The notes: a model not told the origin generated them from the letters alone. A stretch of 64,000 nucleotides of DNA from a virus (IMGVR_UViG_3300038465_000055:1-64000), one strand, 5' to 3'. Shown: positions 4,140 through 52,679, counted from the stretch's first letter. Numbers and translations are program-made.

Positions 4140-4634
4140 TTAGTCCCAATACTTCGGCAGCTCAATCATATCGGTGCGATCGGCGCCATAGGCCGCGATC
4201 AGCGCGGCATCAGCGCGGTTGTGATCTTTCACTCGCTTGAACTGATCAGCCGACTTCGGAAACAGCGTCATCGCCAGCGCTCGCGAGTCAGCCTTCATCG
4301 TGTGAAGCAGATTGAAGCGGGTTTTCCATTTTTTCGGCGTAACGCGAACGCAGTTGTCAACCTCGCAAACCGAGATACCTTCGAGGATGCCGACATTGCG
4401 CATGAACACGCCGGCGGCGACAACGCCTTGCCCAATGAATGCGTGGACGTTTTCGAAATACAGGAAATCCGGTTCCCATTTGCGGATCAGGTCGCGGTAC
4501 GCGCGCCCGTCGATCTCGCCTTCCTCCGTGTTGGGAATATCAACACACAAACACTCTGGCCAATTGGAACGGCCTGCCTCAAACAAGAGACAGGCCGCGC
4601 CATTCTTTCCGGGATCGACGCCGACGACACGCAT
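4140..4634 (-). CDS. ruvC: RuvC-like Holliday junction resolvase
   Basis: VVGVDPGKNGA, FENV, VTPKKWK, DHNRADAALIA. Confidence 0.85.
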   Translation of the reverse strand: MRVVGVDPGKNGAACLLFEAGRSNWPECLCVDIPNTEEGEIDGRAYRDLIRKWEPDFLYFENVHAFIGQGVVAAGVFMRNVGILEGISVCEVDNCVRVTPKKWKTRFNLLHTMKADSRALAMTLFPKSADQFKRVKDHNRADAALIAAYGADRTDMIELPKYWD

Positions 4635-5218
4635 CAGTGGAGCGGCTGACGATCTTCATCCTGATCGGACTCCATCGTCTGCAGCGAGCCGGCCGCCGGA
4701 TTGTCCTCGTCCATACTGCCGCTGCCAGCGTCGGCTTCGCCGTCATCATCCTCGCCGGGCTTCTTCTTTTTGCTGTTGGCCTTTGCTTGGGCCTTGGCAA
4801 CGACCGGATCGGGAATGAGCTGGCCCTGCTCTGCTGCGCGTTTGCCGAGTTCGAGCGCATCGATATACATTAGAAGATGCGGCAGCGTCGTGGATAGCTT
4901 TCTCGGTGACATGGAGTCGAGTCCGCGGACGATCGACAAAGCCTTGCGATCGAAGTGCTGCGTCTCGCACGCCTTGGCGATCATCTCGCCCATCTTGCCG
5001 GCGGCTTCTGACGCTTCCTTCTGAGAGACCTTGAGACGACGAACGAGCGCGATAACCTGCGCGTCCTGCGGCGCCCGATCCCTGTCGAACGAAAGCTTAG
5101 GCGCGGCGGCGCGTTTTGGCTCTGACGCTGCTTTTACTTTTGGCGACGACTTTTTTGGCGACGACTTTCTTGCGCTCTTTGCTGCGGCCTTCTCGGCGGC
5201 GGACTTCGGTTTGGTCAT
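4634..5218 (-). CDS. GapR/DUF2312-like DNA-binding protein with Lys-rich N-tail and acidic C-tail
   Basis: Core ...AKACETQHFDRKALSIVRGL...LLMYIDALELG resembles the GapR pattern; SPKK repeats at N-terminus. Confidence 0.55.
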   Translation of the reverse strand: MTKPKSAAEKAAAKSARKSSPKKSSPKVKAASEPKRAAAPKLSFDRDRAPQDAQVIALVRRLKVSQKEASEAAGKMGEMIAKACETQHFDRKALSIVRGLDSMSPRKLSTTLPHLLMYIDALELGKRAAEQGQLIPDPVVAKAQAKANSKKKKPGEDDDGEADAGSGSMDEDNPAAGSLQTMESDQDEDRQPLH

Positions 5219-5507
5219 GATTGGTCTTTCCTTCAGGTTGCTGATAGTGGGCGACGTCTTTGACGATCGGCATCGGCTTTCCATCTGGCCACTTCTCAGT
5301 AAACCACGCGGTCAGAAGGTCGTATTTGCGCAGCGTGCAAGATGTCTTGCCGCTTTCGAGATCCGGGAAAAACGTCATCGTCCCGGTCGAGTTAGACCCC
5401 ACGGTCGTGATCTTCAACCCAGCCGCCTCGGCATATGCCTTGGCGAGCGTCACGAGGTTTGCCACAAGAGGGGCCGAAATGGGCTGGATTACTGCGGGCT
5501 GTGTCAT
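5097..5507 (-). CDS. Cro-like transcriptional regulator
   Basis: LAKAYAEAAGLKITTVG...TLRKYDLLTAWFTEKWP pattern of alphaproteobacterial phage Cro-like proteins; first gene of the leftward operon. Confidence 0.65.
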   Translation of the reverse strand: MTQPAVIQPISAPLVANLVTLAKAYAEAAGLKITTVGSNSTGTMTFFPDLESGKTSCTLRKYDLLTAWFTEKWPDGKPMPIVKDVAHYQQPEGKTNHDQTEVRRREGRSKERKKVVAKKVVAKSKSSVRAKTRRRA

Positions 5508-5549
5508 AGGGATATCGTTCTACCCCCTTGGAGTCCGGAAGGGAATCCC

Positions 5550-5608
5550 CCGGTGGATAAATAACAGGTAAAAACCCCTTGACGGCCGCTCTGGTTTTTA
5601 CCTAGCTT
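5550..5608 (+). promoter_or_regulatory. Divergent control region: rightward promoter inside an 11-bp inverted-repeat operator
   Basis: AGGTAAAAACC (5566-5576) / GGTTTTTACCT (5593-5603) flank TTGACG (5579-5584); TAGCTT at 5603-5608; GGTGGATAA at 5552-5560. Confidence 0.65.
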
Positions 5609-5680
5609 GTTCCGGTCAAAAGGTCCGTGATTCCCCCAAGCTGCCAGACAACCGTTCTCACGCAACAGGAGTCCGCAGAG

Positions 5681-6010
5681 ATGCCCATGATCGCTTACAA
5701 ACTGACAGGCACGAATTTTAGAGGCCAGATCGCCGTCGATTTCGTCGCCGAGATGAAGCCCGGCCATGCCGCCACCCTTTACCGGGAGCGCAACAACGAG
5801 TTGGACAAGATGGCCATCAAGGTCCTCGCCGACCAAGGTCCCAACAGCACGTCGATGGATATCGGGTACATCGGCCGCCCGCATAATGCCAAGCTTTCTA
5901 GGCTGATGGACGCCGATCCCGACGTCACATGGCACGGCAAGTTCGGCTACATGGGCACCGGCAAATCCAAAATCCCAGCGATACAGGTTGAGGTGCCCGA
6001 TGACGACTGA
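5681..6010 (+). CDS. HIRAN-domain protein
   Basis: LTGTNFRG...LYRERNNELDKMAIKV...IGYI motif; AGGAG RBS. Confidence 0.8.
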   Translation: MPMIAYKLTGTNFRGQIAVDFVAEMKPGHAATLYRERNNELDKMAIKVLADQGPNSTSMDIGYIGRPHNAKLSRLMDADPDVTWHGKFGYMGTGKSKIPAIQVEVPDDD

Positions 6011-7079
6011 TCCGTACAAATGGCACGATGACGCGATGAAGGGGATTCGCGGTCCGATCCACGACGGCGATCCGATGACTGGCTGGTACCGCAATCGCCG
6101 ACTGATCAGCCGCAAGGATGAATCGCCCAAGCGATACGAATTTGAGGCAGTGGCTTACTGGAAAGACACCGCGACCGGTGAGCAGCGCTGCCACGTCAAT
6201 GGTAAATCGGTGAACGAGACCACATTGCATACGATGTGGCCCTATGCATCGAAATACCCCATCAGCGAGGAAACATATGATGCGTACCTCGCGACCGGAA
6301 AATGGCCAGAGCACAACGATGTTCTGGCCGAGCAAGAGGCGAAGTCGAACGAGGCCCCCGACGATGATTCTCCGGAAGGCGTGCGGAGTCGCATCGACTC
6401 CCTAGTGGCAGAAGCCAATCGCCTGATGAAGAAAGGCGCTGCCAAGACCAAGGCTGAAGCCGACGCGGCCGGCGACGTTGCCGTGAAGCTGGGCGAGCTG
6501 CACGCGCACGCCGAGAAGCTTCGCAAGGCCGAGAAGAAGCCGCATCAGGACGCCGGCAATGCCGTCGACGCGAAGTGGAATCCGATCCGCGACGCCGCTG
6601 ATATTTACCTCAAGCTTAAAGCGATGGTTGTGCAGCCGTGGCTCAATGCCGAGGACGCGCGGAAGAAAAAGGAAATAGCTGAGGCAAACGCGGAGCGCGA
6701 GCGCGTCTTGCAGAAGGCGCGCGACGAGGCCGCCGCAAAGCAAGCCGAGATTGACAAGGCGCACGCTGCCGCTGCCGAAGCCGCGATCGCGAAGAACAGG
6801 CCGATCCCGCCACCGCCTGAAAAGGTCGAAGCGCAGATCCCTGAAGATTTCTATCGGGACGCACCGCAGACGTTCGTTCCTACCAAGGCCGGCACCGGCA
6901 AAACCATCAGCGCGCGCGCCGTGCGCACCGCGCAAATCGACGACTACGCCAAGACGCTGGCGCACTTCGCAGAGCATCCCGAGATCAAGGCATTGGTGCA
7001 AGAGCTGGCCAACAAACTGGCCAAGGCAAAGATGCCGATACCGGGATGTGTGATCTTGGAAGATGGACGCGCGGTGTAA
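6000..7079 (+). CDS. Conserved phage protein of recombination modules (coiled-coil)
   Basis: AEKLRKAEKKPHQDAGNAVDAKW and C-terminal IPGC motif. Confidence 0.7.
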   Translation: MTTDPYKWHDDAMKGIRGPIHDGDPMTGWYRNRRLISRKDESPKRYEFEAVAYWKDTATGEQRCHVNGKSVNETTLHTMWPYASKYPISEETYDAYLATGKWPEHNDVLAEQEAKSNEAPDDDSPEGVRSRIDSLVAEANRLMKKGAAKTKAEADAAGDVAVKLGELHAHAEKLRKAEKKPHQDAGNAVDAKWNPIRDAADIYLKLKAMVVQPWLNAEDARKKKEIAEANAERERVLQKARDEAAAKQAEIDKAHAAAAEAAIAKNRPIPPPPEKVEAQIPEDFYRDAPQTFVPTKAGTGKTISARAVRTAQIDDYAKTLAHFAEHPEIKALVQELANKLAKAKMPIPGCVILEDGRAV

Positions 7080-17639: not shown

Positions 17640-18029
17640 TCAGGCAGCCTTCGTCGCATCGGCGGCCATCAGGCTTATGGCCTTCGTCGCATCGGCGGCC
17701 ATCACGTCTGGATGCGTGATCGTCACGACAGCTTTGGCCGTGTCCGCGGCTCCCGTAACAGATGCCGGTTGCATCTTCTTTGCGATCTCAATCGCCGCGG
17801 CCTGCGTCGCGGTATCCGTCAGCTTCTTGAGATACGCTTCTGCTTGCACGTGTCCGTCTTGTACCCACCACGACCAGAACGCTCCACCGGCCGCGACCGC
17901 AGCTCCAGAGAATGCTTCGAGGCCGGGACCGGCCGAGATAAGACCATGGGTAACAAGAGCACCACCCGCGACCTTCAAGACGCTGGTGAACATCAGAGTG
18001 ACGAACGGTTTGATGGCATCCCAATTCAT
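17640..18029 (-). CDS. Putative holin
   Basis: Two hydrophobic segments ending AFWSWW; in lysis cassette. Confidence 0.6.
   Translation of the reverse strand: MNWDAIKPFVTLMFTSVLKVAGGALVTHGLISAGPGLEAFSGAAVAAGGAFWSWWVQDGHVQAEAYLKKLTDTATQAAAIEIAKKMQPASVTGAADTAKAVVTITHPDVMAADATKAISLMAADATKAA
17647..17704. repeat. 25-bp direct repeat, period 33 bp (MAADATKA x2)
   Basis: GCCTTCGTCGCATCGGCGGCCATCA at 17647-17671 and 17680-17704. Confidence 0.9.
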
Positions 18030-18553
18030 GATGAAGACTCCCCTGTGTGTGAAATTTCGACATGCGTGCTGAGAATGAGGAACAGCATTAGCGGACTCCA
18101 GCGATGGAATGGCACAACTGTGGGCCATTTGAAATAGGGGAACGGGTTTGTCCGCAACGCCCAACCCATTTCAGCCGAACAGATCAGATTGCCTATTGTG
18201 TGCAGGTTCAAGGCCGGATCGACAAAATTGATGATTGACTTGATATCGTAGGGTGCTCCGACTCGCTTATCGATGTGATCATAGAAGCAGTTTTGCTGAT
18301 CGATCGTGCATGGCAGATCCACAAATTTCTGAGACATTGATCCATCAGGCAGTTTCATCAGGCTTGCTATATCGTACCCCGCCGGTCGCTTCTTCATGCC
18401 GCCGTCCGCGTGCTGCCCGATCCACCATTGCTTGTCGAGAGAAACGCATTCGCAATGGCTAGGGACGAAAGGCATCGCGAGTCCCGCCTGAAATCTGATG
18501 TCGGCTGATATCAAATCGTTCTCGGTAACAAATCTGAGTGTTATGGCCGGCAC
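18026..18553 (-). CDS. Permuted papain-like (NlpC/P60, YiiX-type) enzyme
   Basis: SHC (His) precedes GAPYD and ICS (Cys). Confidence 0.75.
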   Translation of the reverse strand: MPAITLRFVTENDLISADIRFQAGLAMPFVPSHCECVSLDKQWWIGQHADGGMKKRPAGYDIASLMKLPDGSMSQKFVDLPCTIDQQNCFYDHIDKRVGAPYDIKSIINFVDPALNLHTIGNLICSAEMGWALRTNPFPYFKWPTVVPFHRWSPLMLFLILSTHVEISHTGESSS

Positions 18554-18742: not shown

Positions 18743-18996
18743 GGCGACTTCACTTTCTGCTCGATCAGCATGGCGATGGTTTCGACGACCGGAAGCACCT
18801 GAATGGCATCTGGATACATTTTCTTGAGGATCGGAATGGCCCTCGCGATAAGCGGCTTCATCTCCTCCGCGATCGGCTTCAGCTCCTCCCAGCCTGCCAT
18901 TAGTCGGCTGAATTCCGGTTGATCCGAATTGAGCGCTTCGATAGTTGCTTCAGGAACGCCCAAGACTGTTAGGCCAATATCGATGATCGTGCTCAT
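18739..18996 (-). CDS. Hypothetical protein
   Basis: 85 aa, ATGA-coupled to endolysin. Confidence 0.6.
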   Translation of the reverse strand: MSTIIDIGLTVLGVPEATIEALNSDQPEFSRLMAGWEELKPIAEEMKPLIARAIPILKKMYPDAIQVLPVVETIAMLIEQKVKSP

Positions 18997-19688
18997 GACA
19001 CAAGCACCGGAGTTGCAACGGTCGGTACCGAAACTGTAGGCATCGAAACCGTAAGACCCTCGATCTGGATCGAGCTGTCGATCGCCATCATCATAGAGAG
19101 CAGCGGCGCCGTTCCCTCCTGCACGTCGATATATTTGGCGTTGTACACGTGATCTCGAACGTACTTTCCGGAAATATAAACGTCACTTCCGGACCACACG
19201 TAGGCCGAGGGAACGCCCATCGCGGCATATCCGAGCCCGTTGAACTCCTCCCAGAGAGTGAGAACACCGCCGATCGTCCAAAGGGGCCACTTCGCTGCAT
19301 AGGGCGCCGAGTTGATCAGGACATCGACGCAGCACCGAGTCCAAGCATCGTGGCCGGGCGTGACATCGCCTTCATGCGCGAGATAAGGCCCCATGTTAGC
19401 CGGGACATTGTGCGAGCGCTGGTTGAGCGGATCACCCTGTCCGAGCTGCTTATCCCAATGCGGAGGCCCGCTATACTCGCGCTCCGATGCGATCGCGATA
19501 AACCACCACGGCACCGGCTGCATCTTCTGTTCGATCAGCCGATCGGTAACGCCCTGATAGCGCGCCTTCGAAACCGGATCACATAGCCGCATCGCGGACT
19601 TGTGGAAGGCCGGAAGTTTGTCGGCCTTGACGTGCATGTTCACCCAGCGATGCGCGTTGACGGCTTCGAGCGCTACAATGTTGACCAT
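18993..19688 (-). CDS. Endolysin (lysozyme-like family common in rhizobia)
   Basis: VPWWFIAIASERE..LGQGDPL..EEFNGLGY..PSAYVWSGS..YISGKYVRD. Confidence 0.85.
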   Translation of the reverse strand: MVNIVALEAVNAHRWVNMHVKADKLPAFHKSAMRLCDPVSKARYQGVTDRLIEQKMQPVPWWFIAIASEREYSGPPHWDKQLGQGDPLNQRSHNVPANMGPYLAHEGDVTPGHDAWTRCCVDVLINSAPYAAKWPLWTIGGVLTLWEEFNGLGYAAMGVPSAYVWSGSDVYISGKYVRDHVYNAKYIDVQEGTAPLLSMMMAIDSSIQIEGLTVSMPTVSVPTVATPVLVS

Positions 19689-19707
19689 GACGATATCTCC
19701 CTTCCTT

Positions 19708-22110
19708 TTATTGCCTCGTGGCAACATCTAACTGCATGACCCCGACACCTCCATTGTATCCAGTGCCAAAATTATTAGCATTTTCTTCTGTGGCTGAAAC
19801 AAAGTGAAACCCAGAGACCGCTGGATAGTTGGCAATTGAGATTGGGCTCGCAAAAAAAGAATTTGCAGTAGCCGTTTCCATCAGAGCACGAGCATCAAAA
19901 CAAGTCGTTCCGTCAAGGCATGTACCTGTGACAGAACCAGACCCCGCCGAAGCGGATGTAAATGCCTGCACCTGATAGCTTGCCGTAAAACCATTCAGGG
20001 GAAGTCCAACGACAAACGATGCCCTGTTATTGACTGAGTTGTCGGCCGCACGGACCGCGCTCGCTCCGGATTGCAACCATACACTCACAGTGTCGGTGAC
20101 CGTCGTTTTGACGTCGACTTGGTTGTACATATTCCAGACACCGAACATCGCAGCGCCGCCACCGCCTGCAGCGCTACCCCAAACATAACTTATCGAACCA
20201 TTTGCAATGGCATACACGGTGCCGAGATACGTGGCTTGGTTCGCAGCGACCGAACCATAGTTCGTCGATCCGTTGAAGCAATTCGCCAGCGCATTCTTGT
20301 TTGTTGGATATGGCCGCGTGATCTGATCGATGACGGTGTAGCCGGTGCCGCGCGACGTATTCGATCCTCCGGTATCGGCCGCCCAGCCGCCGCCGCCGCC
20401 GCCAGCAGTTGACATCGCCAAGCAAATCCTGTTGGCGCCACCATGCACCCACCAAACGTCATAGACCTGAGATCCGACGACCTGACCTGCGCTCGCCGCT
20501 GCGACCATCGCATCGATAACCTCGCATGAGGCGACCGTGTCGATCAGATCAAGCGTGCCATTGAAATACGGGACTCCGCCGCCCACCGCGCAATCATATC
20601 GCAGCGTCGTCTGGTTCGCGCACGACGACCCGCCGCAAGACGTTGCGAGCATGACCGGGGTATTAGCGGCCAGCGTGATGCGACCCTGCGGCGCGATGAC
20701 GGCGCCCGCAACCGTGCATGTTCCGGTGCTTGTAATGCTGCACGTTCCAGAGACAGCTATTCCAGATCCCGCCGCGATAATAACGTTGGTCACCGTTCCA
20801 GTGCCGCCCGCCGTCAGCCAAGCCGGCACGCCGGTCGGCCCTTCGGAAAATACCTGCGTGCCGCTATTGTTACCGGCCAGCGTCGTCCAGATGGTGCCGT
20901 TCCAGAAAGCGAAGTCGCCAACTCGAGTCGGAACAGGCATCAATGCCGTGATCGCAGCCGGCGCCCCGCTCTGACCCGTACCGCCATTTGCGATCGGCGC
21001 AATACCCGTCACGCCTCCGTTGCCGCTGGCGCCTAGATTTATCGCCGACAGCCACGAACCCGAGATCGTCCCAGAGTTGATGGCCGAGCCCGCGATCGAT
21101 GGCGTACCGCCGAGCGCATAAGTTCCGGTGATCGTGCCTGTGATCGCCGGCCCGGTGCCAAACGTGACAGTCGAATTGAATATAGCGCCGCCTGTGACAG
21201 CCAGAAAAAAACCGCCGATGGTCGCGCCGCCCAAAGCCAGCGACGTTCCCGCTGCCACACCGAGCGACGGCGTCGTCAAGGCCATATTGGTGGCGGCGAT
21301 CCCGCTGGGTAGCGTTGCGGAGAATGACGGAACGTTCGATCCGTTCGTCACCAACACCGAATTAGCAGCGAGCGCTGCCGCCGTCATGGTTCCACCGTTC
21401 GTCGAATTGTACGGAACGCCAGTGCCGCCGCTTATGGTCGTGGTTCCATAGGTGATGCCGGTAGCTGGCGCCACGATCGAGCACGTGCTTCCGAGGGCGC
21501 ATGGGATGCCGTTCACGGTCGTGAGGGCAACCGCTCCATTCACATAGTAGTTTCCGCTGACATTGATGGTGCCCGCGCCGGTCAGCGTTCCCATCGTCGT
21601 GCCGACCGTTACGCTGCCGTCTTGCTCGACCCCAAACCTGTCCGTCAACGTCGCGCTGCCATTCGGCGTAACGCCAAAGCGCAAATAGGTTCCATTCTGG
21701 CCCACGCTCCAATTCTGTGCCGCGTAGGTTCTGATCGCCGCCTGCGGGCCGACCACTCCGGTTCCGTTATAGCCGAACGCATTCAACGAACAGACTTCAT
21801 CCGCGGACTGCAACGTTGTCGGCGCCGCTTCCGTGCCATCCCAGCGCACGCAACTATAGCGCGGTACGCTAGCGTAGGCGTCCAGCTCCGTCCTTACCGT
21901 CGTTCCAGCAGCTCCGACAATCTGCAAACCGCTGCCAGCCAAAAAAGCCGGCGTCGTCTGCGAGGCGTTTAGATTGATGATCTGGGGAGAAAGAAACGTG
22001 TTGATCGCGGTCGTGAATGCGCAGTTGACGCACGAAGGCGGACTTGGCTGCGCCGCTGCACCGACAACAGAAACAGCCAGAGCGAATAGTGCCGCGATAA
22101 AACTGCGCAT
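19708..22110 (-). CDS. Tail fibre/spike-like protein with N-terminal signal peptide
   Basis: MRSFIAALFALAVSVVGAAA leader; G/T-rich fibre repeats (PIANGGTG, GTGTVT, PQGRITL, GVWNMYNQ); 16 Cys, mostly in local pairs. Confidence 0.8.
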   Translation of the reverse strand: MRSFIAALFALAVSVVGAAAQPSPPSCVNCAFTTAINTFLSPQIINLNASQTTPAFLAGSGLQIVGAAGTTVRTELDAYASVPRYSCVRWDGTEAAPTTLQSADEVCSLNAFGYNGTGVVGPQAAIRTYAAQNWSVGQNGTYLRFGVTPNGSATLTDRFGVEQDGSVTVGTTMGTLTGAGTINVSGNYYVNGAVALTTVNGIPCALGSTCSIVAPATGITYGTTTISGGTGVPYNSTNGGTMTAAALAANSVLVTNGSNVPSFSATLPSGIAATNMALTTPSLGVAAGTSLALGGATIGGFFLAVTGGAIFNSTVTFGTGPAITGTITGTYALGGTPSIAGSAINSGTISGSWLSAINLGASGNGGVTGIAPIANGGTGQSGAPAAITALMPVPTRVGDFAFWNGTIWTTLAGNNSGTQVFSEGPTGVPAWLTAGGTGTVTNVIIAAGSGIAVSGTCSITSTGTCTVAGAVIAPQGRITLAANTPVMLATSCGGSSCANQTTLRYDCAVGGGVPYFNGTLDLIDTVASCEVIDAMVAAASAGQVVGSQVYDVWWVHGGANRICLAMSTAGGGGGGWAADTGGSNTSRGTGYTVIDQITRPYPTNKNALANCFNGSTNYGSVAANQATYLGTVYAIANGSISYVWGSAAGGGGAAMFGVWNMYNQVDVKTTVTDTVSVWLQSGASAVRAADNSVNNRASFVVGLPLNGFTASYQVQAFTSASAGSGSVTGTCLDGTTCFDARALMETATANSFFASPISIANYPAVSGFHFVSATEENANNFGTGYNGGVGVMQLDVATRQ

Positions 22111-22121
22111 GTGATCTCTCT

Positions 22122-22430
22122 TCAAAACCAAACGACAGAAAATTTGTGACCGTTGGAAGCTGCGTTGACCGAGGTTATCGACGTTTGACCGGGAATGATG
22201 GGCCAACTCGCGCCGGGGTATAGCACGAAGGTTGTCCCGTTCCCCACCAAACCCGCCGGATTTACCGGATCGACATACAGATTTTCCGGCGCCCCGAGCC
22301 CCTGATCCGTTGCCGATATCGGATTGGTTATGAATCCGCCATTCGGGGCGCCGGGAATAACCTCGACGGGCGTCCCACCGTTTGTAACCACCGAGGTGAG
22401 ACCCGGTACCGGGGTGACTGCAACGGTCAT
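22122..22430 (-). CDS. Small beta-sandwich protein paralogous to the N-terminal domain of the 24639-25616 baseplate protein
   Basis: Shared GGxIxNP...DQG..PExL..D..NPA.L...TTF.L.PG...VNAA..GHKFS. Confidence 0.8.
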   Translation of the reverse strand: MTVAVTPVPGLTSVVTNGGTPVEVIPGAPNGGFITNPISATDQGLGAPENLYVDPVNPAGLVGNGTTFVLYPGASWPIIPGQTSITSVNAASNGHKFSVVWF

Positions 22431-22432
22431 TT

Positions 22433-23278
22433 TTAAGATACCCCTGTGAATGGCGGAATTTTCCAAGCGTCGATGTTTGATTCCGTCAAGTCCTCAATAT
22501 CACTTTGGACCCCAGCGGCCCAGCGCGTAACCGCGTCCATCCCCGCCTTGCTCTGCTTTTGCTGGTTAAGAAATTCGGTATCGGCCGCCGGCCGCTGCGC
22601 AGCCTGAAAGACCACCTGATCAGCGACAGATGCTTGCAGTGGCGCAACGCTGTCTGTGATTACTTTTATTTTTGCCTGCGCCGCAGCGCGATCCGCGTCT
22701 GTCTTGGCCGCCAACATTTGAACCGTTAGATCCTGCAATGGAAGTTGGGCCGTCCTGATTTCCACCATGACAGCTTGCAATCTCTGGCTATCGGATAAAG
22801 CAATATCCCCCTCTCGAATCGTGAGCGCGCGACGTTTCCCCGGAGGTGGCGCAATCTTTTCCATCTCCTGCTGTTCCATGGCCGTTACGGAATTCAGAAG
22901 AACGTTCTTCTTCGATCTTAGGATCTGATCAGCCGTGGGATCGTCGTTCACGACTTCATAGTCAGAGATATATTTTCCATCCTTGCCGAGAACGATGGAC
23001 GCCTCGACATCCTGGGAGCCGATCGGACGTTTTACCGGGGCATGACGCGATAGTTTTTCCTCCTGCCATTTGGCTACAGCATGGCTCAAATCGTTAGAGG
23101 CTGTCTTACTGCTCTTGAATTCCGCCCATGTCGGGCAAGGCTTGACCGGGCCGAGCGCCTTGAGTTCATCCGCCACGATCTTGTTTCGCTCCGCCCACAG
23201 ATTCATTTCATCGACATGGAGCTTGACGGTGTCGTCGAATCCTTCCGGCAATCTTGACTTCAAAATCTGATGCGTCAC
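22433..23278 (-). CDS. Tail-fibre-associated (assembly/chaperone-like) protein
   Basis: Follows the tail fibre; helical; ends DIEDLT...IDAWKIP. Confidence 0.6.
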   Translation of the reverse strand: MTHQILKSRLPEGFDDTVKLHVDEMNLWAERNKIVADELKALGPVKPCPTWAEFKSSKTASNDLSHAVAKWQEEKLSRHAPVKRPIGSQDVEASIVLGKDGKYISDYEVVNDDPTADQILRSKKNVLLNSVTAMEQQEMEKIAPPPGKRRALTIREGDIALSDSQRLQAVMVEIRTAQLPLQDLTVQMLAAKTDADRAAAQAKIKVITDSVAPLQASVADQVVFQAAQRPAADTEFLNQQKQSKAGMDAVTRWAAGVQSDIEDLTESNIDAWKIPPFTGVS

Positions 23279-23293
23279 GACGACATTCCTTTT

Positions 23294-24616
23294 TCAAAGT
23301 TTGAGATACCACGTTCCGCTCATCGCTAGATGGACAGTGTTGTGGGCGCCGCCGCCGGTGTTGTACGAAAGAACCGACTGACCGCTGGTAGCCCCCGATC
23401 CCGATCCGGAAACTGCAATCTGAACCGGAGACGGAGAACCAATCTGTAGGATTGGAGATGGGCCACCTTCGAGGTTAACGTTGTACACCGATCCAGTAAT
23501 GATATCCGTGTAGTTTGATACGCCAGTGATGCTGACGCTGACGGACAATGCTCCTCCGCTCGAATCGATCTGCGGAATCTCGGTCGGAGTCAGCGTATGC
23601 AGGTTTTGTCCAAGAATAGATCCCGGTATAGTCGCGCTCCCCGAGCTGAATGGTACACCGCTCAACAACGTCGTGGCAGGGCCGCCCATCGTGTCGACGC
23701 CGATCGGGCTCTTGCCTCGCATGTCGAGCGTCGTGATCGCGCAGTTTGCCGCAAAGTCCGCCGCTGCATTGACGCCTCTAGCGACAAGAGCGCCAGCGCT
23801 GTTACGAAGCGGACATTGCACGTTCGAAAATTCGTTCCAGTGCCATTCGAACAAATTGATCGTGGTTGGATCAGCAAACCCTGTGGCATTCGACGCCGCA
23901 TTGCCTATCGTCAGTGTATTGGCGGTAACCCAACCCGATATCGTTTCCGACGTCGGACGCCACTTGAAATCGCCAGTGGTAGCTATGCCAGCGCTGGACT
24001 GAGATTCCTGAGATGCACTGATGAGCTGATAAGGGCCGCTCCCGGGATCGTAAATCGTGAAGGCGCCCGCAGCCACAATAGCGCCCGTACCAAGAGCGCT
24101 GCCGTTGGGATTTACGATCGCGAAGCTTCCGGCGCCTAGATTGAGCGTCGATGGTCCAGTGTTGCTTGTGGCAGCAAGGATATCGATCACCATGCCTTGC
24201 TGGCGCGTGGTGACTGCCGGGCTCAAAACGACAGCGTAGGCGTTGACTGTTCCGGTATCCTGCGCTGATGTCGCGCTTCCAGATTGGGCCTGCACGATCT
24301 GCATCATGAGGGCCATCGTTCCAGCGGTCGGTCCCATCTGGAAGATATCGCCAGCATTCCATGCCAGCGCAACGGTGCCTTCCTGACCGCGCAGGATCGT
24401 GAAGGTATCCGCAGCCGTCGCGGTCACCCACACCACCTCGGTGATCAAACTGTTGCCAGCCGCGACAAGAGTGCCGATGAAAAATTTATTACCAGCGATC
24501 ACCGGAAAATTTGAGCCCTCGCCTGCAACCAAGGTCAGACTTGTCGCCGCCGCAGTGATCGGACTCGCCAGCGTGCCAGTCGCGTTATCCTTGAACAGCA
24601 TCAGCGGAAAAGTCAT
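23294..24616 (-). CDS. Baseplate-attached tail fibre with collar-like domain
   Basis: FKDNATGTLA..RGQEGT..AWNAGD N-terminus; DMRGKSPIGVD, GQNLHTLTPTEIP, TGGGAHN. Confidence 0.85.
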   Translation of the reverse strand: MTFPLMLFKDNATGTLASPITAAATSLTLVAGEGSNFPVIAGNKFFIGTLVAAGNSLITEVVWVTATAADTFTILRGQEGTVALAWNAGDIFQMGPTAGTMALMMQIVQAQSGSATSAQDTGTVNAYAVVLSPAVTTRQQGMVIDILAATSNTGPSTLNLGAGSFAIVNPNGSALGTGAIVAAGAFTIYDPGSGPYQLISASQESQSSAGIATTGDFKWRPTSETISGWVTANTLTIGNAASNATGFADPTTINLFEWHWNEFSNVQCPLRNSAGALVARGVNAAADFAANCAITTLDMRGKSPIGVDTMGGPATTLLSGVPFSSGSATIPGSILGQNLHTLTPTEIPQIDSSGGALSVSVSITGVSNYTDIITGSVYNVNLEGGPSPILQIGSPSPVQIAVSGSGSGATSGQSVLSYNTGGGAHNTVHLAMSGTWYLKL

Positions 24617-24638
24617 GACGCGAGCCCCTAGCTATTAT

Positions 24639-25616
24639 TTATGATGACGCGATCGAAACATTGAATGTGTACTGAAACGGCAGCTCCACGGCACCCGACT
24701 GAATCGCCTCTTGCAGAATAACCGAATTTGGAGTTAGCGGCAGGATGATATCGATCACGAACCTCGACGGATAGCTCACGCTGACCGAATAGGTATTGTC
24801 TATGACTGGATCTGTCCCGTTTGGCCCATTCAGGAATCGCAAGATGCGCCGCTTTAGCCACTGAGGATTGAACGTCTGGCCGTCCCCGCGATAGAGCCGC
24901 CACGTCATGATTCGCTTGAATATATCGTCTGAGGTCACCGTGACGTTGTCGGCGCCGATTGCCTTGTAGCCGTTCCATACAAGCTGGTTATAGAGCGCCG
25001 TGTTGTAAGGTCCAAGATTTTGATTGAGCCCCGACGAAAGAGTCGGCCGAAGCATCCCGTAAAGACCGTCAGCTACCCAATCGAGCAACGTTCCAGCAAT
25101 CAAAGAAGAGGTATAGATCGGAAGATTTATCTGGTTGAACCAATCCACGAATTGCTGCGCATAGGAATTGTACGACGCGAACATAGCTTGCAGATCTGCG
25201 TCGTCCGCATACTCCTGATAGAGATACGCCTTTATGACATTGACTAGACCGGTTGGCCCCGAGGGAGGAAACGTCGCGCCAGTCGATACCAGAGAAACTA
25301 ACGGCTGAATGATGATAGCGCTGAATTTGTGCCCGACCGTCGCCGCGTTGACATTTAGGTTCGTCGCCAAACCGGGCGGCACTTGGATGGACTGCCCCGG
25401 CGCCAGCCTGAACGTCGTCGGAGATTCGACGAGAGATGCTGGATTGATGAAATCATAGAACAGTGTTTCAGGAATCGGGATTCCCTGATCCCGCGCCGCC
25501 GCCGGATTGGCGATGATGCCACCTTGTACGCCGCCAAAAATCGCAACCTGCGAAACACCACCGATAGCGATGGATGTCGATGCCGCTTTGAAAACTGAAA
25601 CCGGAGCAGCGCCCAT
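24639..25616 (-). CDS. Baseplate wedge protein (gpI-like) with extra N-terminal domain
   Basis: AYLYQEYADD..LLDWVADGLYG..SDDIFKRIMTW; follows baseplate J. Confidence 0.75.
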   Translation of the reverse strand: MGAAPVSVFKAASTSIAIGGVSQVAIFGGVQGGIIANPAAARDQGIPIPETLFYDFINPASLVESPTTFRLAPGQSIQVPPGLATNLNVNAATVGHKFSAIIIQPLVSLVSTGATFPPSGPTGLVNVIKAYLYQEYADDADLQAMFASYNSYAQQFVDWFNQINLPIYTSSLIAGTLLDWVADGLYGMLRPTLSSGLNQNLGPYNTALYNQLVWNGYKAIGADNVTVTSDDIFKRIMTWRLYRGDGQTFNPQWLKRRILRFLNGPNGTDPVIDNTYSVSVSYPSRFVIDIILPLTPNSVILQEAIQSGAVELPFQYTFNVSIASS

Positions 25617-29190: not shown

Positions 29191-29793
29191 TCAACCCTTC
29201 CATCGACGAAGGGCCGCCTCACTCATTCGTTTCCGAGTTTCCTCAGACCTCTTTCGGCCGACATTGATCGTGTTGCCTTTTTTGAAACAATTGTTCTCCG
29301 TCCTCGGTAGGGTATTGCCCACTCCTCCTCCTCCGCCGATCCTATTTGGCACCAATTCTCCAGATAGAAGCCTGCGAGTCATACGCTCGCTCAATACCCT
29401 CCTCGCTTCTGGGGAAGCGAATTGAGCCTTTGCTTTTCGACTAAGCTTGGCTCGAGTCTGCTCAGAAAAATTATGAGCACCACCACCGCCATCTGACCTA
29501 TTCCAAAGCGGCCCCTTTAATTTGTCAGCACGACCTATCTCATCGATCAAGCGGCGCTCGTTTTCGTAAGCCTCCTCTCTTGTGAGCCCACAAATTATCT
29601 TCTTGGGAACCACAGAAAGACCGCAGCCGATCGCATGAAGGATGCCAAGATTTTTTGAAGGGCTAATATTTTTCGCAAGCTCCCTAGCCGCATTTCTTAT
29701 GTGCATGTTCATGCGGTATCCGCTTCCCATTCCGATATATCTTGGGATGGGATCATCACCGACAAATAGGCCATAGACATAGAACTTGTTCAT
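29191..29793 (-). CDS. GIY-YIG-family homing endonuclease with NUMOD3-like tail
   Basis: FYVYGL..RYIGMG..R; LTREEAYENE; LWNRSDGG; GRKRSEETRKRMSEA. Confidence 0.85.
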   Translation of the reverse strand: MNKFYVYGLFVGDDPIPRYIGMGSGYRMNMHIRNAARELAKNISPSKNLGILHAIGCGLSVVPKKIICGLTREEAYENERRLIDEIGRADKLKGPLWNRSDGGGGAHNFSEQTRAKLSRKAKAQFASPEARRVLSERMTRRLLSGELVPNRIGGGGGVGNTLPRTENNCFKKGNTINVGRKRSEETRKRMSEAALRRWKG

Positions 29794-30281
29794 GGCGACA
29801 CTTCTATTTGATTGTTGGCGATACGGTACACCAGAGTCGAGTTGAAGTATCCAGCGGTCAGGCTGATGTTCTCGCTGGCGACGCCAAGCCTCGTCGCAGC
29901 TCCCGGATCGGCCATCAGCGGATAGGTGAATGTGTACCGGCCTGTGACATAGGCGAGCACCTGACCGTTGTAGGCGTCCGGCGTCGAGCCCGTGATCGTG
30001 AGCGCCACCGTACTGCCGATTCGGTATGGAATGGGATTCGCAAGCGTCCCTGTCACAAAACCATTGGCCCATGACAGCTCCGCAAGATTGGCCCCGTTCG
30101 GAGATCCCACCATTGCCTTGTTGACGATCAGCGTGCCGTCGAGACCTGCGATCGCGAGATAGTATCGCTGCGCCGCCATATTAAAGGTGACGGTCGCGTT
30201 GTAGACCTGACCGTCCAGCGTGGGCTGGAACGTATAGTTCGCGGTCGGTACCGGCGTGAAATCATAATAGGTGATGCTCAT
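29790..30281 (-). CDS. Baseplate plug-like protein with FCCH-like insert
   Basis: FQPTLDGQVYNATVTFNMAAQRYYL; NISLTAGYFNSTLVYR. Confidence 0.7.
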   Translation of the reverse strand: MSITYYDFTPVPTANYTFQPTLDGQVYNATVTFNMAAQRYYLAIAGLDGTLIVNKAMVGSPNGANLAELSWANGFVTGTLANPIPYRIGSTVALTITGSTPDAYNGQVLAYVTGRYTFTYPLMADPGAATRLGVASENISLTAGYFNSTLVYRIANNQIEVSP

Positions 30282-50675: not shown

Positions 50676-52679
50676 TTAGTGTTGGGTCGGCATGCGGGTA
50701 CCGATGAAGTTGACGTTGCGGTGTGGGCGCGACATCTGCGCGAAGATCGTGCCCTTGCCGACGAACCGTGTGATCTTGTGGCCGCCCGGTGCGGTTTCCT
50801 TGATCTCGCGATGCTGGAATGGCTGCGCATCTGTCGGGTCCATCGCCGCCTTGAAGGCGTCTGCCCGAATGCCGTCGAGCGCGATCGTGAAGCCCTTGGC
50901 ATCGGCAGCGATCACCGCCAGATCGACATCCTTCCACGTTTTTGAGTGGGGCTGAAGCTTGCGGGCAAGCCGAATGTTGTAGGCGACAATATCCTCGCCG
51001 GACATCGGCGGATCTGCGCTGTCATTCATGGCGCGCAGCACGACGTCGGCTTTCGCCTGTGCATCTGCGAAGGCATCGCGATCGGCCTGCGTCATCTTGC
51101 GCGGCTGCATCGAGGTGACCATCGCCTGAAGCTTTTCGAATTCAGAGCGAGGAACGCTGTCAGCCTTGGCTGCATCAGCCTTCTCTTTCTCTTTTTCCTT
51201 GTCCTCGGCATCCTTCTTGGCAGCATCAGCCTTTTCTTTTTCCTTCTCTTTTTCCTCAGCGTCCTTGCGCTTCTTGTCGGCTGCCGTCTCCTCGGCTCCC
51301 TCGCCGTCTTTCTTGGCGCCGTCCTTCTTGGCCGCGTCTTTCTTCTTCTCCTCCTCCTCCTTTTCGGAATCGGACTTGGCGGCGTCCTTTTTCTTTTCTT
51401 CTTCCTTCTCTGCGTCGCGCTTCGCCGAGTCGGACTTCACCGCGTCCATCACAGCATCGTACTTCGAATCCATTTTCTGACAGTGCGAGGCCATGTCCTG
51501 ACGGAGACCATCCGCCATCTTCTTGAACGAATCCATGATGGCGTCCATCACACCATTTGCGTGCGAACCAACACCGGCCTCATCAGCAGCCTTCTTATCG
51601 GCATCCGCCTTCTTCTCTGCTTCGGTTTTTTCGGCCACGCTGGAATCTCCTCTGATGATGTGATCGCTGCTAATTCCGGCGGGCTCCCCGCCTTTGTCCC
51701 AAACACCCTGCTGGCAGATCGCGACATGATCTAGCAAACCGGGGTCGCCTTCAATGAGTAACAAGCTCTTGTCGGGAAGTGCTACGGACTGATTTACACT
51801 GAGTTTCGTGAAAACAACAGTGGGACTTGTGGACAGCACGCCTTTTTCCATCTCGGCGTTGGCCTCGTCGTCATAGATCTTGGCCACCGCCCAGACTTCA
51901 TCTTCGTCGATGTAGGGCACAAAAACGGTGCCGACGATCCGCTTGGCGAACTCTTTTGACGTCAGCTTCGCCTTAGCCGGGTGCAGCCAGATAACCGGCA
52001 GCCCGTTGCATCGATCGAGGAAATCCTGATTGAGATAGTGCTCTGGCGGCCGATAGACGTGCTCGTCATAGACGATCGTCTTGCCGTCGTCGTCCTTTCG
52101 CTTCTGCGCCTTGCGGAATGACCGGCCCGTACCCGTGATCCGCATCGTCCACATCGTCATGTTGATGTAGCGCTGCGGCGACATTAGCTCGCCCGCGGCC
52201 ATCGCGCGCGCGATCCCCAGCTCATTCATCGTCAGCTTGTCGAGCGCGATCTGACAGCCGGGATGCAGCGGTTGCGGCGCGTCGCCGATCGACGACCACA
52301 CGAAGCCGTCATGCTCCTCATTCAGCTTAGGTGTGAACTGGACCGGGACGCGGACAAGGAACGTCGTGAAATCAACCATAGGCGGAGGCGGCAGCTCGAC
52401 CACGTCAGGAACAAGCGACGCCGGCTTTTCAGCTACATCCTCCAACACCGGCTTGATGCGCCTTGCGTGCAGACGCAGCGCCGCTGGCTTTACCTTGTAT
52501 CCGGTCTCCTCCTCGACCTCGCGGATTGCCGCACCATCGGCGTCCTCGCCATCCTCGATTTTTCCACCGGGAAACGCCCAACGGCCGATCTGGTCGCCGT
52601 CAGCGCGGCGCAGGAATAAGGCTTTGCCCTCGGGATCGAGGAACAGGATGCCGGCGGCGCGAATCACATTATCGGTCAT
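50676..52679 (-). CDS. Nudix hydrolase - prohead protease (DUF2213-like) - scaffold fusion
   Basis: Nudix box GGKIEDGEDADGAAIREVEEETGY; RCNGLPVIWLHP, STSP, LDHVAIC..GVWDK; K/E/D/A-rich scaffold. Confidence 0.85.
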   Translation of the reverse strand: MTDNVIRAAGILFLDPEGKALFLRRADGDQIGRWAFPGGKIEDGEDADGAAIREVEEETGYKVKPAALRLHARRIKPVLEDVAEKPASLVPDVVELPPPPMVDFTTFLVRVPVQFTPKLNEEHDGFVWSSIGDAPQPLHPGCQIALDKLTMNELGIARAMAAGELMSPQRYINMTMWTMRITGTGRSFRKAQKRKDDDGKTIVYDEHVYRPPEHYLNQDFLDRCNGLPVIWLHPAKAKLTSKEFAKRIVGTVFVPYIDEDEVWAVAKIYDDEANAEMEKGVLSTSPTVVFTKLSVNQSVALPDKSLLLIEGDPGLLDHVAICQQGVWDKGGEPAGISSDHIIRGDSSVAEKTEAEKKADADKKAADEAGVGSHANGVMDAIMDSFKKMADGLRQDMASHCQKMDSKYDAVMDAVKSDSAKRDAEKEEEKKKDAAKSDSEKEEEEKKKDAAKKDGAKKDGEGAEETAADKKRKDAEEKEKEKEKADAAKKDAEDKEKEKEKADAAKADSVPRSEFEKLQAMVTSMQPRKMTQADRDAFADAQAKADVVLRAMNDSADPPMSGEDIVAYNIRLARKLQPHSKTWKDVDLAVIAADAKGFTIALDGIRADAFKAAMDPTDAQPFQHREIKETAPGGHKITRFVGKGTIFAQMSRPHRNVNFIGTRMPTQH

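Follow-up and report, generated by a model that had tools for sequence, protein, structure and literature searches.

By the usual view, the particles of tailed phages are finished while still inside the cytoplasm. How, then, could a tail fibre made with a secretion signal become part of one? This question is raised by the distal tail genes of IMGVR_UViG_3300038465_000055, a 74.7-kb IMG/VR virus record rated complete, of which we analysed a stretch of 64 kb (positions 1-64000; hereafter the window). The structural operon of a myovirus lies on the minus strand of the window, and in a 5.9-kb region near its distal end a baseplate wedge protein with an extra N-terminal domain is followed by a primary tail fibre (fibre 1), a 281-amino-acid (aa) protein, a free 102-aa copy of the wedge domain and a second fibre of 800 aa (fibre 2) that begins with a predicted Sec signal peptide. 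An earlier sequence-only reading of this region had supposed that fused and free copies of the domain capture the exported fibre. The answer we favour, whose chances we put a little short of even, is that the two domain copies serve to mount fibre 2 as part of a second set of receptor-binding fibres on the baseplate, fibre 2 being exported and joined to the particle at lysis.

We found that in the wedge protein a DUF2612-type body is preceded by a Pro-rich linker and, at the N-terminus, by an additional domain with a jelly-roll fold. The body (residues 126-322) aligned to positions 7-205 of the 208 in the phrog_8212 profile (3.7e-61), and a Pfam scan of the protein at E <= 0.01 was empty. In tblastn against 50,697 GenBank phages, the collection used for all searches of deposited phages, it was 38-48% identical to genes annotated DUF2612 or baseplate that lie downstream of a J gene (one match annotated DUF2612 at 46% identity). 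These matches cover residues 120-322 only, and none of the 14 GenBank phage matches reaches residues 1-119; since they begin at about residue 120, the N-terminal domain is indeed an addition. Full-length relatives, more than 120 of them, were found in metagenomes, and the gene order J, wedge, fibre is kept in the window and in all related loci. BLASTP of the free copy against the wedge protein gave 40 identities in 83 positions (48%, E 3e-20) over wedge residues 19-101, and a profile built from free copies matched wedge residues 3-103 at 1.2e-26. This similarity is far beyond chance, and the free protein and the wedge N-domain are true paralogs, as had been claimed from the N-terminal ~105 aa of the wedge protein. 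The earlier notion of several free copies did not hold, for the 74.7-kb genome contains exactly one fused and one free copy. Both are predicted to be cytoplasmic. The body and the position after the J gene are the same as in DUF2612 wedge proteins such as GP075 of Pseudomonas phage K8, a component of virions that has the J-like protein and the tail fibre as interaction partners and whose variants bind the lipopolysaccharide (LPS) core, so that wedge proteins of this type can contact the cell surface (PMC9887876). In contrast to the DUF2612 wedges of deposited phages, the window has the N-terminal jelly roll and its free paralog, which are absent from all 50,697 records.

Loci around wedge homologs (80 viral and 32 genomic) were then compared, counting distinct wedge proteins with at least 3.5 kb of downstream sequence. 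Results showed that wedge N-domain and free copy occurred together in 23 cases and were both missing in 20; the N-domain never occurred without a free copy, and a free copy alone was seen once (L067). Over about 90 related loci, a single one departed from joint presence or absence of the two. The co-occurrence is not a single-clade effect: mapped on a tree of the DUF2612 part, the N-domain must have changed state four times or more on well-supported branches, and in three independent contrasts (six over all branches) the free copy always followed suit. A tree of 115 domain copies placed all fused copies on one side of one branch (Shimodaira-Hasegawa-like approximate likelihood ratio test, SH-aLRT, 93), so that there was one old duplication; given this single origin, wedges that lack the N-domain but are nested among wedges that have it are secondary losses. 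One such loss can be seen by comparing two near relatives. L083, a contig binned with an uncultured Rhizobiales genome, carries in order J, a wedge with N-domain, a 209-aa anchor protein, a 472-aa signal-bearing protein, the free domain, an 869-aa signal-bearing fibre and an endolysin-like gene. L073 carries J, a wedge without N-domain, a 210-aa anchor, a 332-aa signal-bearing protein and the endolysin-like gene; its wedge begins exactly at the Pro-rich linker, and N-domain, free copy and fibre 2 are jointly absent. The same joint absence was found in L033 and L045. At least three independent secondary losses took the downstream fibre along. The co-occurrence that the sequence-only reading had put up for checking was borne out: in the counts, in the joint losses and in the fixed adjacency of the genes, fused copy, free copy and downstream fibre behave as one unit. 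Taken together, the comparisons show that fused copy, free copy and fibre make up a single module, whose most likely purpose is to attach a second fibre.

Free copy and fibre gene keep a close spacing. A fibre gene always follows the free copy, within -43 to +38 nt of its stop; in 13 distinct loci the fibre start is found from 16 nt before to 38 nt after that stop, the window fibre starting 11 nt after it. At most of these loci the (mature) fibre N-terminus is Pro-rich, ends in PxPW and leads into a module of ~90 aa containing GTINxxxxYxNG, the profile of which matched only N-domain-bearing loci, and always the open reading frame right after the free copy. In about 13 lineages the downstream fibre begins with a signal peptide and its Cys content is 1.0-2.1 per 100 aa; in about seven the signal is missing and the content is 0-0.9 per 100 aa, the predicted AxA-Q cleavage site coinciding with the start of the Pro-rich stretch in the signal-less proteins. 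The pair of fused and free copies had been tied to exported fibres in particular. This tie had to be given up, because the same pair precedes a signal-less, Cys-poor fibre in those seven or so lineages. Some related phages have exported fibres but no copy of the domain at all. Since the kit serves signal-less fibres and exported fibres exist without it, its link to export is loosened, and the fibre-attachment module does not depend on export. As to fibre 2 itself, the statement that it has no baseplate-anchor N-terminus is right in that the ~90-aa module is absent (its profile gave no match) but misses a short Pro-rich mature N-terminus like that of the relatives, Q-PSPPSCVNC, a shortened form placed like PGPVPDVW of P0055.

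Export of fibre 2 was examined from its N-terminus and its Cys residues. The N-terminus reads MRSFIAALFALAVSVVGAAA, continued by QPSPP; a basic n-region precedes a hydrophobic core of 13 residues, the cleavage motif is A-A-A, and there is no lipobox. Divided into MR, SFIAALFALAVSVVG and AAA before Q, it has all features of a Sec signal peptidase I substrate, with the predicted cut after AAA and before Q22; residues 2-13 were helical in an AlphaFold2 (AF2) model. Translation confirmed the earlier description of an 800-aa fibre with a signal peptide and 16 Cys, including the motifs CVNC, CALGSTC, CGGSSC and CLDGTTC; the Cys residues are at positions 27, 30, 87, 107, 204, 210, 457, 465, 492, 497, 507, 529, 563, 611, 731 and 737. 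Fibre 2 is a mosaic, residues 37-175 and 470-776 being common to different sets of metagenomic proteins. Among the 66 members of the fibre family (fibre 2 and its 65 matches), 52 passed a strict signal-peptide heuristic and about five more resemble signal-bearing proteins by eye; Q stands at +1 in 30 members, and the signal N-termini are conserved in type, not in sequence. In the C-terminal alignment, Cys residues were gained or lost in pairs (457/465, 492/497, 507/529, 563/611 and 731/737). Nearly all relatives with Cys, most of which bear a signal, have the four core Cys; the signal-less distant homologs P0059, P0060 and P0065 lack them. This paired covariation reads as a signature of disulfides tied to export. 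Because the signal peptide is accompanied by paired, co-varying Cys that are restricted to signal-bearing relatives, export of fibre 2 is strongly indicated.

The AF2 monomer of fibre 2 was poor in the Gly/Thr-rich shaft, as expected for a trimer, and confident at the C-terminus (predicted local distance difference test, pLDDT, 85-92). VIA-align superposed residues 667-800 on the TNF-like lectin PLTL (9ib6) with Z 13.1 and a root-mean-square deviation of 2.2 over 126 of 134 residues; the tip also matched dozens of TNF/C1q entries (Z 8-11), the cyanophage fibre tips 9k09, 8ke9 and 9vzi (Z 8.8-9.9) and the Bdellovibrio fibres 8okw and 8ol4 (Z 7.1-7.8). In the model, the tip is a ten-strand TNF/C1q-like jelly-roll fold, predicted to form a trimeric lectin-like head. 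Fibre 2 would have such a tip in common with PLTL, cyanophage A4 (9k09), the short fibre of cyanophage A-1(L) (8ke9) and the Bdellovibrio fibres, which are phage-fibre-like adhesins displayed outside a cell, whereas sequence identity between these TNF/C1q-like structures and the fibre 2 tip is 6-13%. Sequence searches of solved structures with fibre 2, and with the wedge alignment, returned nothing meaningful, fibre 2 matched no Pfam family, and a search of the genome found no second copy of any part of it and no signal-less paralog.

The small domain was modelled by AF2 from 36 sequences as a compact all-beta small jelly roll (pLDDT 97.8 for the 102-aa protein). Foldseek against the PDB gave nothing below E 0.03, and the best VIA-align match, the endospore appendage subunit Ena1B at Z 7.7, is at background level, as are PirA, the PM2 spike, cupins and YomS/XepA (Z 6.3), leaving no specific structural relative. 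Like the window domain, XepA (PBSX, 6i56) and YomS (SPbeta, 6i5o) are small prophage jelly-roll modules, one of them annotated as exported, but their score lies within the background of the aligner. A cupin identity was rejected, since the metal motifs (two His and Glu, then His) are lacking and Z values of 5.5-6.9 are background. Conserved polar residues, namely N36 and H95 (invariant), E49 (near-invariant) and D/Q at positions 43-44, were found, all of them across cytoplasmic and exported forms. Look-alikes in BFVD and the ESM Atlas were only uncharacterised proteins of uncultured tailed phages. The 102-aa protein had no tblastn match in GenBank phages and no Pfam or PHROG family, tail fibre assembly chaperones (Tfa / Caudo_TAP) included, and the domain matched no known carbohydrate-binding family. 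A full HMMER scan of 1.8 billion representatives found it in 323 clusters, all viral. With no Pfam family, no match in deposited phages and no solved-structure relative identified, this is a previously unnamed, virus-specific family.

Among the best 150 of the 323 clusters, 62 domain proteins are free (~100-130 aa), 16 carry the domain at the N-terminus of longer proteins (wedge fusions), 71 carry it at the C-terminus of variable proteins and one holds a tandem pair; about two in five of these 150 start with a signal peptide. A Cys pair at domain positions 32 and 78 is present in 39 of 63 signal-bearing copies versus 8 of 88 signal-less ones (p 4e-12), and the window copies, which have no signal, show Gly and Ile/Val there. 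This pair provides the family with a simple sequence marker of compartment. Of 13 loci in unrelated viral contigs that encode an exported domain protein, 8 have a signal-bearing, Cys-rich protein next in line, so that domain protein and downstream fibre make up a conserved two-gene unit that extends beyond this clade. The unit occurs in three states: both proteins cytoplasmic, the domain cytoplasmic and the fibre exported (as in the window), or both exported. Docking of exported onto cytoplasmic copies as a general rule was considered and dropped, because most contigs with an exported copy have no second copy within 8 kb.

Three observations on the domain family may be added. The exported domains have a motif of their own, NGC-Y-x-NP followed by C-x-PG about 45 residues on (P0075, P0093, P0109, P0135 and P0158; alignment A4). 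P0069, a metagenomic protein of 442 aa, has two tandem domain copies (residues 2-102 and 112-214) before a DUF2612 body. L067, whose wedge has no N-domain, encodes at 4326-7062, in this order, a free copy of 103 aa that lacks a signal, directly after it a signal-bearing protein of 309 aa with the domain at its end, and a signal-bearing fibre of 496 aa; it is the one locus in which a free copy adjoins an exported copy.

The simplest mechanism compatible with the module would be that fused and free domains jointly make the docking site of the second fibre. The wedge-fused and free copies together would form, on the finished baseplate, a docking site for the N-terminus of the 800-aa fibre, the free copy being made in the cytoplasm from the gene just upstream of fibre 2. 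Fibre 2, a putative trimeric adhesin with a TNF-like tip, would be made with its Sec signal and exported; in the periplasm about eight disulfides would form and the signal would be cut off, leaving the Pro-rich N-terminus. Fibre and baseplate would meet only once the holin and endolysin encoded downstream break the inner membrane. The gene order fits joining at lysis, fibre 2 coming last among the structural genes and directly next to the lysis cassette. That the copies bind each other or the fibre, that fibre 2 is actually exported and that it is present on virions we infer from these data. More tentatively still, and with the balance of probability against it, the same scheme may extend to the whole clade as a two-compartment assembly: particles with empty docking sites would be built in the cytoplasm, disulfide-bonded fibres would reach the periplasm through Sec, and the two would be joined at lysis, the docking sites consisting of the wedge-fused and free jelly-roll domains and, in relatives, additionally of a 210-aa fibre stub. 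If so, the 100-aa domain family would be a general docking module for such fibres.

Several points weigh against docking of an exported fibre at lysis. A Fisher test on the co-occurrence counts ignores relatedness, and the test on the three independent contrasts gives p 0.25, significance being unreachable with three pairs. The window fibre lacks the ~90-aa module, and its docking is therefore less certain than that of its relatives. Signal-bearing domain proteins occur in contigs without a wedge-fused copy within 8 kb, so a baseplate-fused partner is not always needed, and the invariant N36 and H95 with the near-invariant E49 would fit a ligand site equally well. In the searchable literature, no tailed phage was found described as adding periplasm-folded fibres to cytoplasm-built particles and no paper on signal-bearing tail fibres was found; neither such fibres nor the domain turned up in deposited phage records and that literature.

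The alternative that survives best, though we think it unlikely, is that fibre 2 is exported and stays off the virion, as a soluble or envelope-bound trimeric lectin acting on the infected cell's own envelope. Such a lectin might mask receptors against adsorption of progeny or superinfecting phage, or remodel surface glycans, the domain pair serving another purpose. Signal and disulfide pattern would place fibre 2 in the periplasm while particles are built in the cytoplasm, its predicted tip has a lectin-like TNF fold, and exported domain-plus-fibre pairs exist without a nearby baseplate-fused copy; moreover, known signal-bearing phage genes adjoining fibre genes, such as T5 Llp and lambda Lom and Bor, are exclusion or conversion genes. 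A mask, however, should copy the receptor-binding protein of the virion, yet the genome has no signal-less paralog of fibre 2. In sister phages its place is taken by homologs that share the N-terminal module but have no signal, and these can only be ordinary virion fibres; the fibre is also lost jointly with a baseplate domain. In relatives of the L073 type, the sole distal fibre part bears a signal. The signal-bearing protein of L073 is the only distal fibre candidate in its tail module, and since a stub whose sole distal partner bears a signal is otherwise hard to explain, this argues that exported proteins end up on particles.

A role of the ~100-aa domain itself in binding glycans or receptors, its copies being auxiliary baseplate adhesins that travel with fibre 2 in a host-range cassette, seems to us quite unlikely. 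It would account for the polar residues kept in all forms (N36, H95, near-invariant E49 and D/Q43-44), is in keeping with a cupin- or jelly-roll-like fold, with the binding of K8 GP075 variants to LPS core (PMC9887876) and with the domain forming the C-terminal end of many exported proteins. It leaves unexplained, though, why a free copy is constantly needed beside the fused one and why the free-copy gene is locked to the fibre start in three export states, and no known carbohydrate-binding family was matched.

We regard it as improbable that the hydrophobic N-terminus gives no export during infection, fibre 2 being assembled in the cytoplasm with its disulfides formed after release. In some phages disulfides can form after lysis, and signal-less orthologs of fibre 2 do exist; against this stand the full n-h-c pattern with AxA-Q, which at least 52 relatives share in type though not in sequence, and the Cys pairs that accompany the signal, in the fibre as well as in the small domain. 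Least probable is a Tfa-like assembly chaperone of fibre 1 or fibre 2 that is not kept in the particle, for although the free copy is small and directly follows the primary fibre gene, the classic chaperone position, in L029, L035, L037, L047, L051 and L052, it is paralogous to and co-varies with a structural baseplate domain, is predicted to be cytoplasmic while the window fibre 2 would be exported, is separated from fibre 1 by another gene in the window, L004 and L008, and is missing from relatives that have fibre 1 without the wedge N-domain.

Docking of fibre 2 on the domain pair would have parallels in known adaptor-mounted second receptor-binding proteins, namely G7C gp66/gp63.1, the CBA120 tailspikes and the K1-5/SP6 adaptor. 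In these systems, too, a small module of the particle mounts an extra, exchangeable receptor-binding protein, and the cassette is gained or lost as a unit. They differ from the window in the fold of the adaptor, in the presence here of one fused and one free copy, and in the signal-bearing fibre. If fibres encoded in the ordinary fibre position, with a baseplate adaptor of their own, do carry working secretion signals, some phages would complete their particles only once the envelope has been breached and could use oxidatively folded, disulfide-stabilised adhesins. The role of the domain as partner of an exchangeable fibre is testable and would be useful for annotating host-range modules in metagenomic phages.

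The 5.9-kb region had no blastn match in GenBank phages. Genomic matches with a wedge N-domain were only contigs of metagenome-assembled genomes labelled Rhizobiales and Xanthobacteraceae, and the clade is one of soil myoviruses that probably infect Hyphomicrobiales. The operon runs from terminase, portal, major capsid protein, a neck region with very large open reading frames and sheath, through tape measure with a lytic domain, homing endonuclease, baseplate hub, gpV-type spike and gp25-like protein, to J, wedge protein, fibre 1, the 281-aa protein, the free domain, fibre 2, an endolysin-like protein and holin. The features of its distal part are collected in Table 1.

Table 1. Distal tail and lysis genes of the window and the domains discussed in the text.
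Feature	Coordinates	Strand	Evidence or remark
Baseplate J-like wedge subunit, 481 aa	25622..27067	-	phrog_6 baseplate wedge subunit 6.8e-20; Pfam Baseplate_J weak
Baseplate wedge protein, 325 aa	24639..25616	-	phrog_8212, 3.7e-61, residues 126-322
Fused copy of ~100-aa domain, wedge residues 3-103	25308..25610	-	Domain profile 1.2e-26; BLASTP vs free copy 3e-20
Primary tail fibre (fibre 1), 440 aa, no signal peptide	23294..24616	-	PHROG tail-fibre families, residues 6-175
281-aa protein, no signal peptide	22433..23278	-	Between fibre 1 and free-domain gene
Free domain copy, 102 aa, no signal peptide, no Cys	22122..22430	-	Paralog of wedge N-domain; proposed fibre 2 adaptor
Second fibre (fibre 2), 800 aa, predicted Sec signal peptide, 16 Cys	19708..22110	-	Stop-free translation
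Predicted signal peptide of fibre 2, residues 1-21	22048..22110	-	Read from sequence; AF2 helix
Predicted TNF/C1q-like jelly-roll tip of fibre 2, residues 667-800	19711..20112	-	VIA-align on AF2 model
Endolysin-like protein, 244 aa, first of lysis cassette	18993..19727	-	L083 homolog has PG_binding_1
Holin	17640..18164	-	PF23987 Phage_holin_10, 8.5e-08, above curated cut-off

The endolysin-like gene directly follows fibre 2, and its position after the fibres is kept in L007, L073 and L083; its 244-aa product has no Pfam family. The N-terminal ~200 aa of fibre 1 are common to the 210-aa anchor proteins of relatives (alignment A5). In many relatives (L003, L010, L012, L017, L022, L026, L073, L083 and L084; e.g. 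L083:11079-13075) the primary fibre is split: a cytoplasmic protein of 209-221 aa, consisting of the N-terminal anchor and a small domain ending in NxWSFKP, is followed, often with overlap, by a 289-482-aa protein with a signal peptide. The 440-aa fibre of the window is the unsplit, signal-less form. The 281-aa protein matched no Pfam or PHROG family and gave BLAST matches in few relatives (L004 and L008); it looks largely helical, is found only in relatives with an unsplit primary fibre (the same two), and could be a chaperone of that fibre.

Other proteins of the operon showed further features. The J-like protein, encoded directly upstream of the wedge gene, has an insert at residues 288-347 that matches the FCCH domain of ubiquitin-activating enzyme E1 (PF16190, 3.5e-10, above the curated cut-off). 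The homing-endonuclease-like gene (phrog_314, 4e-16) lies at 29191-30072 (-), between the tape-measure region and the baseplate hub gene. In the head module, a 667-aa protein (phrog_6216; 50676-52679, minus strand) matches NUDIX hydrolase families over residues 6-67 (3.4e-18) and, weakly, a head maturation protease.

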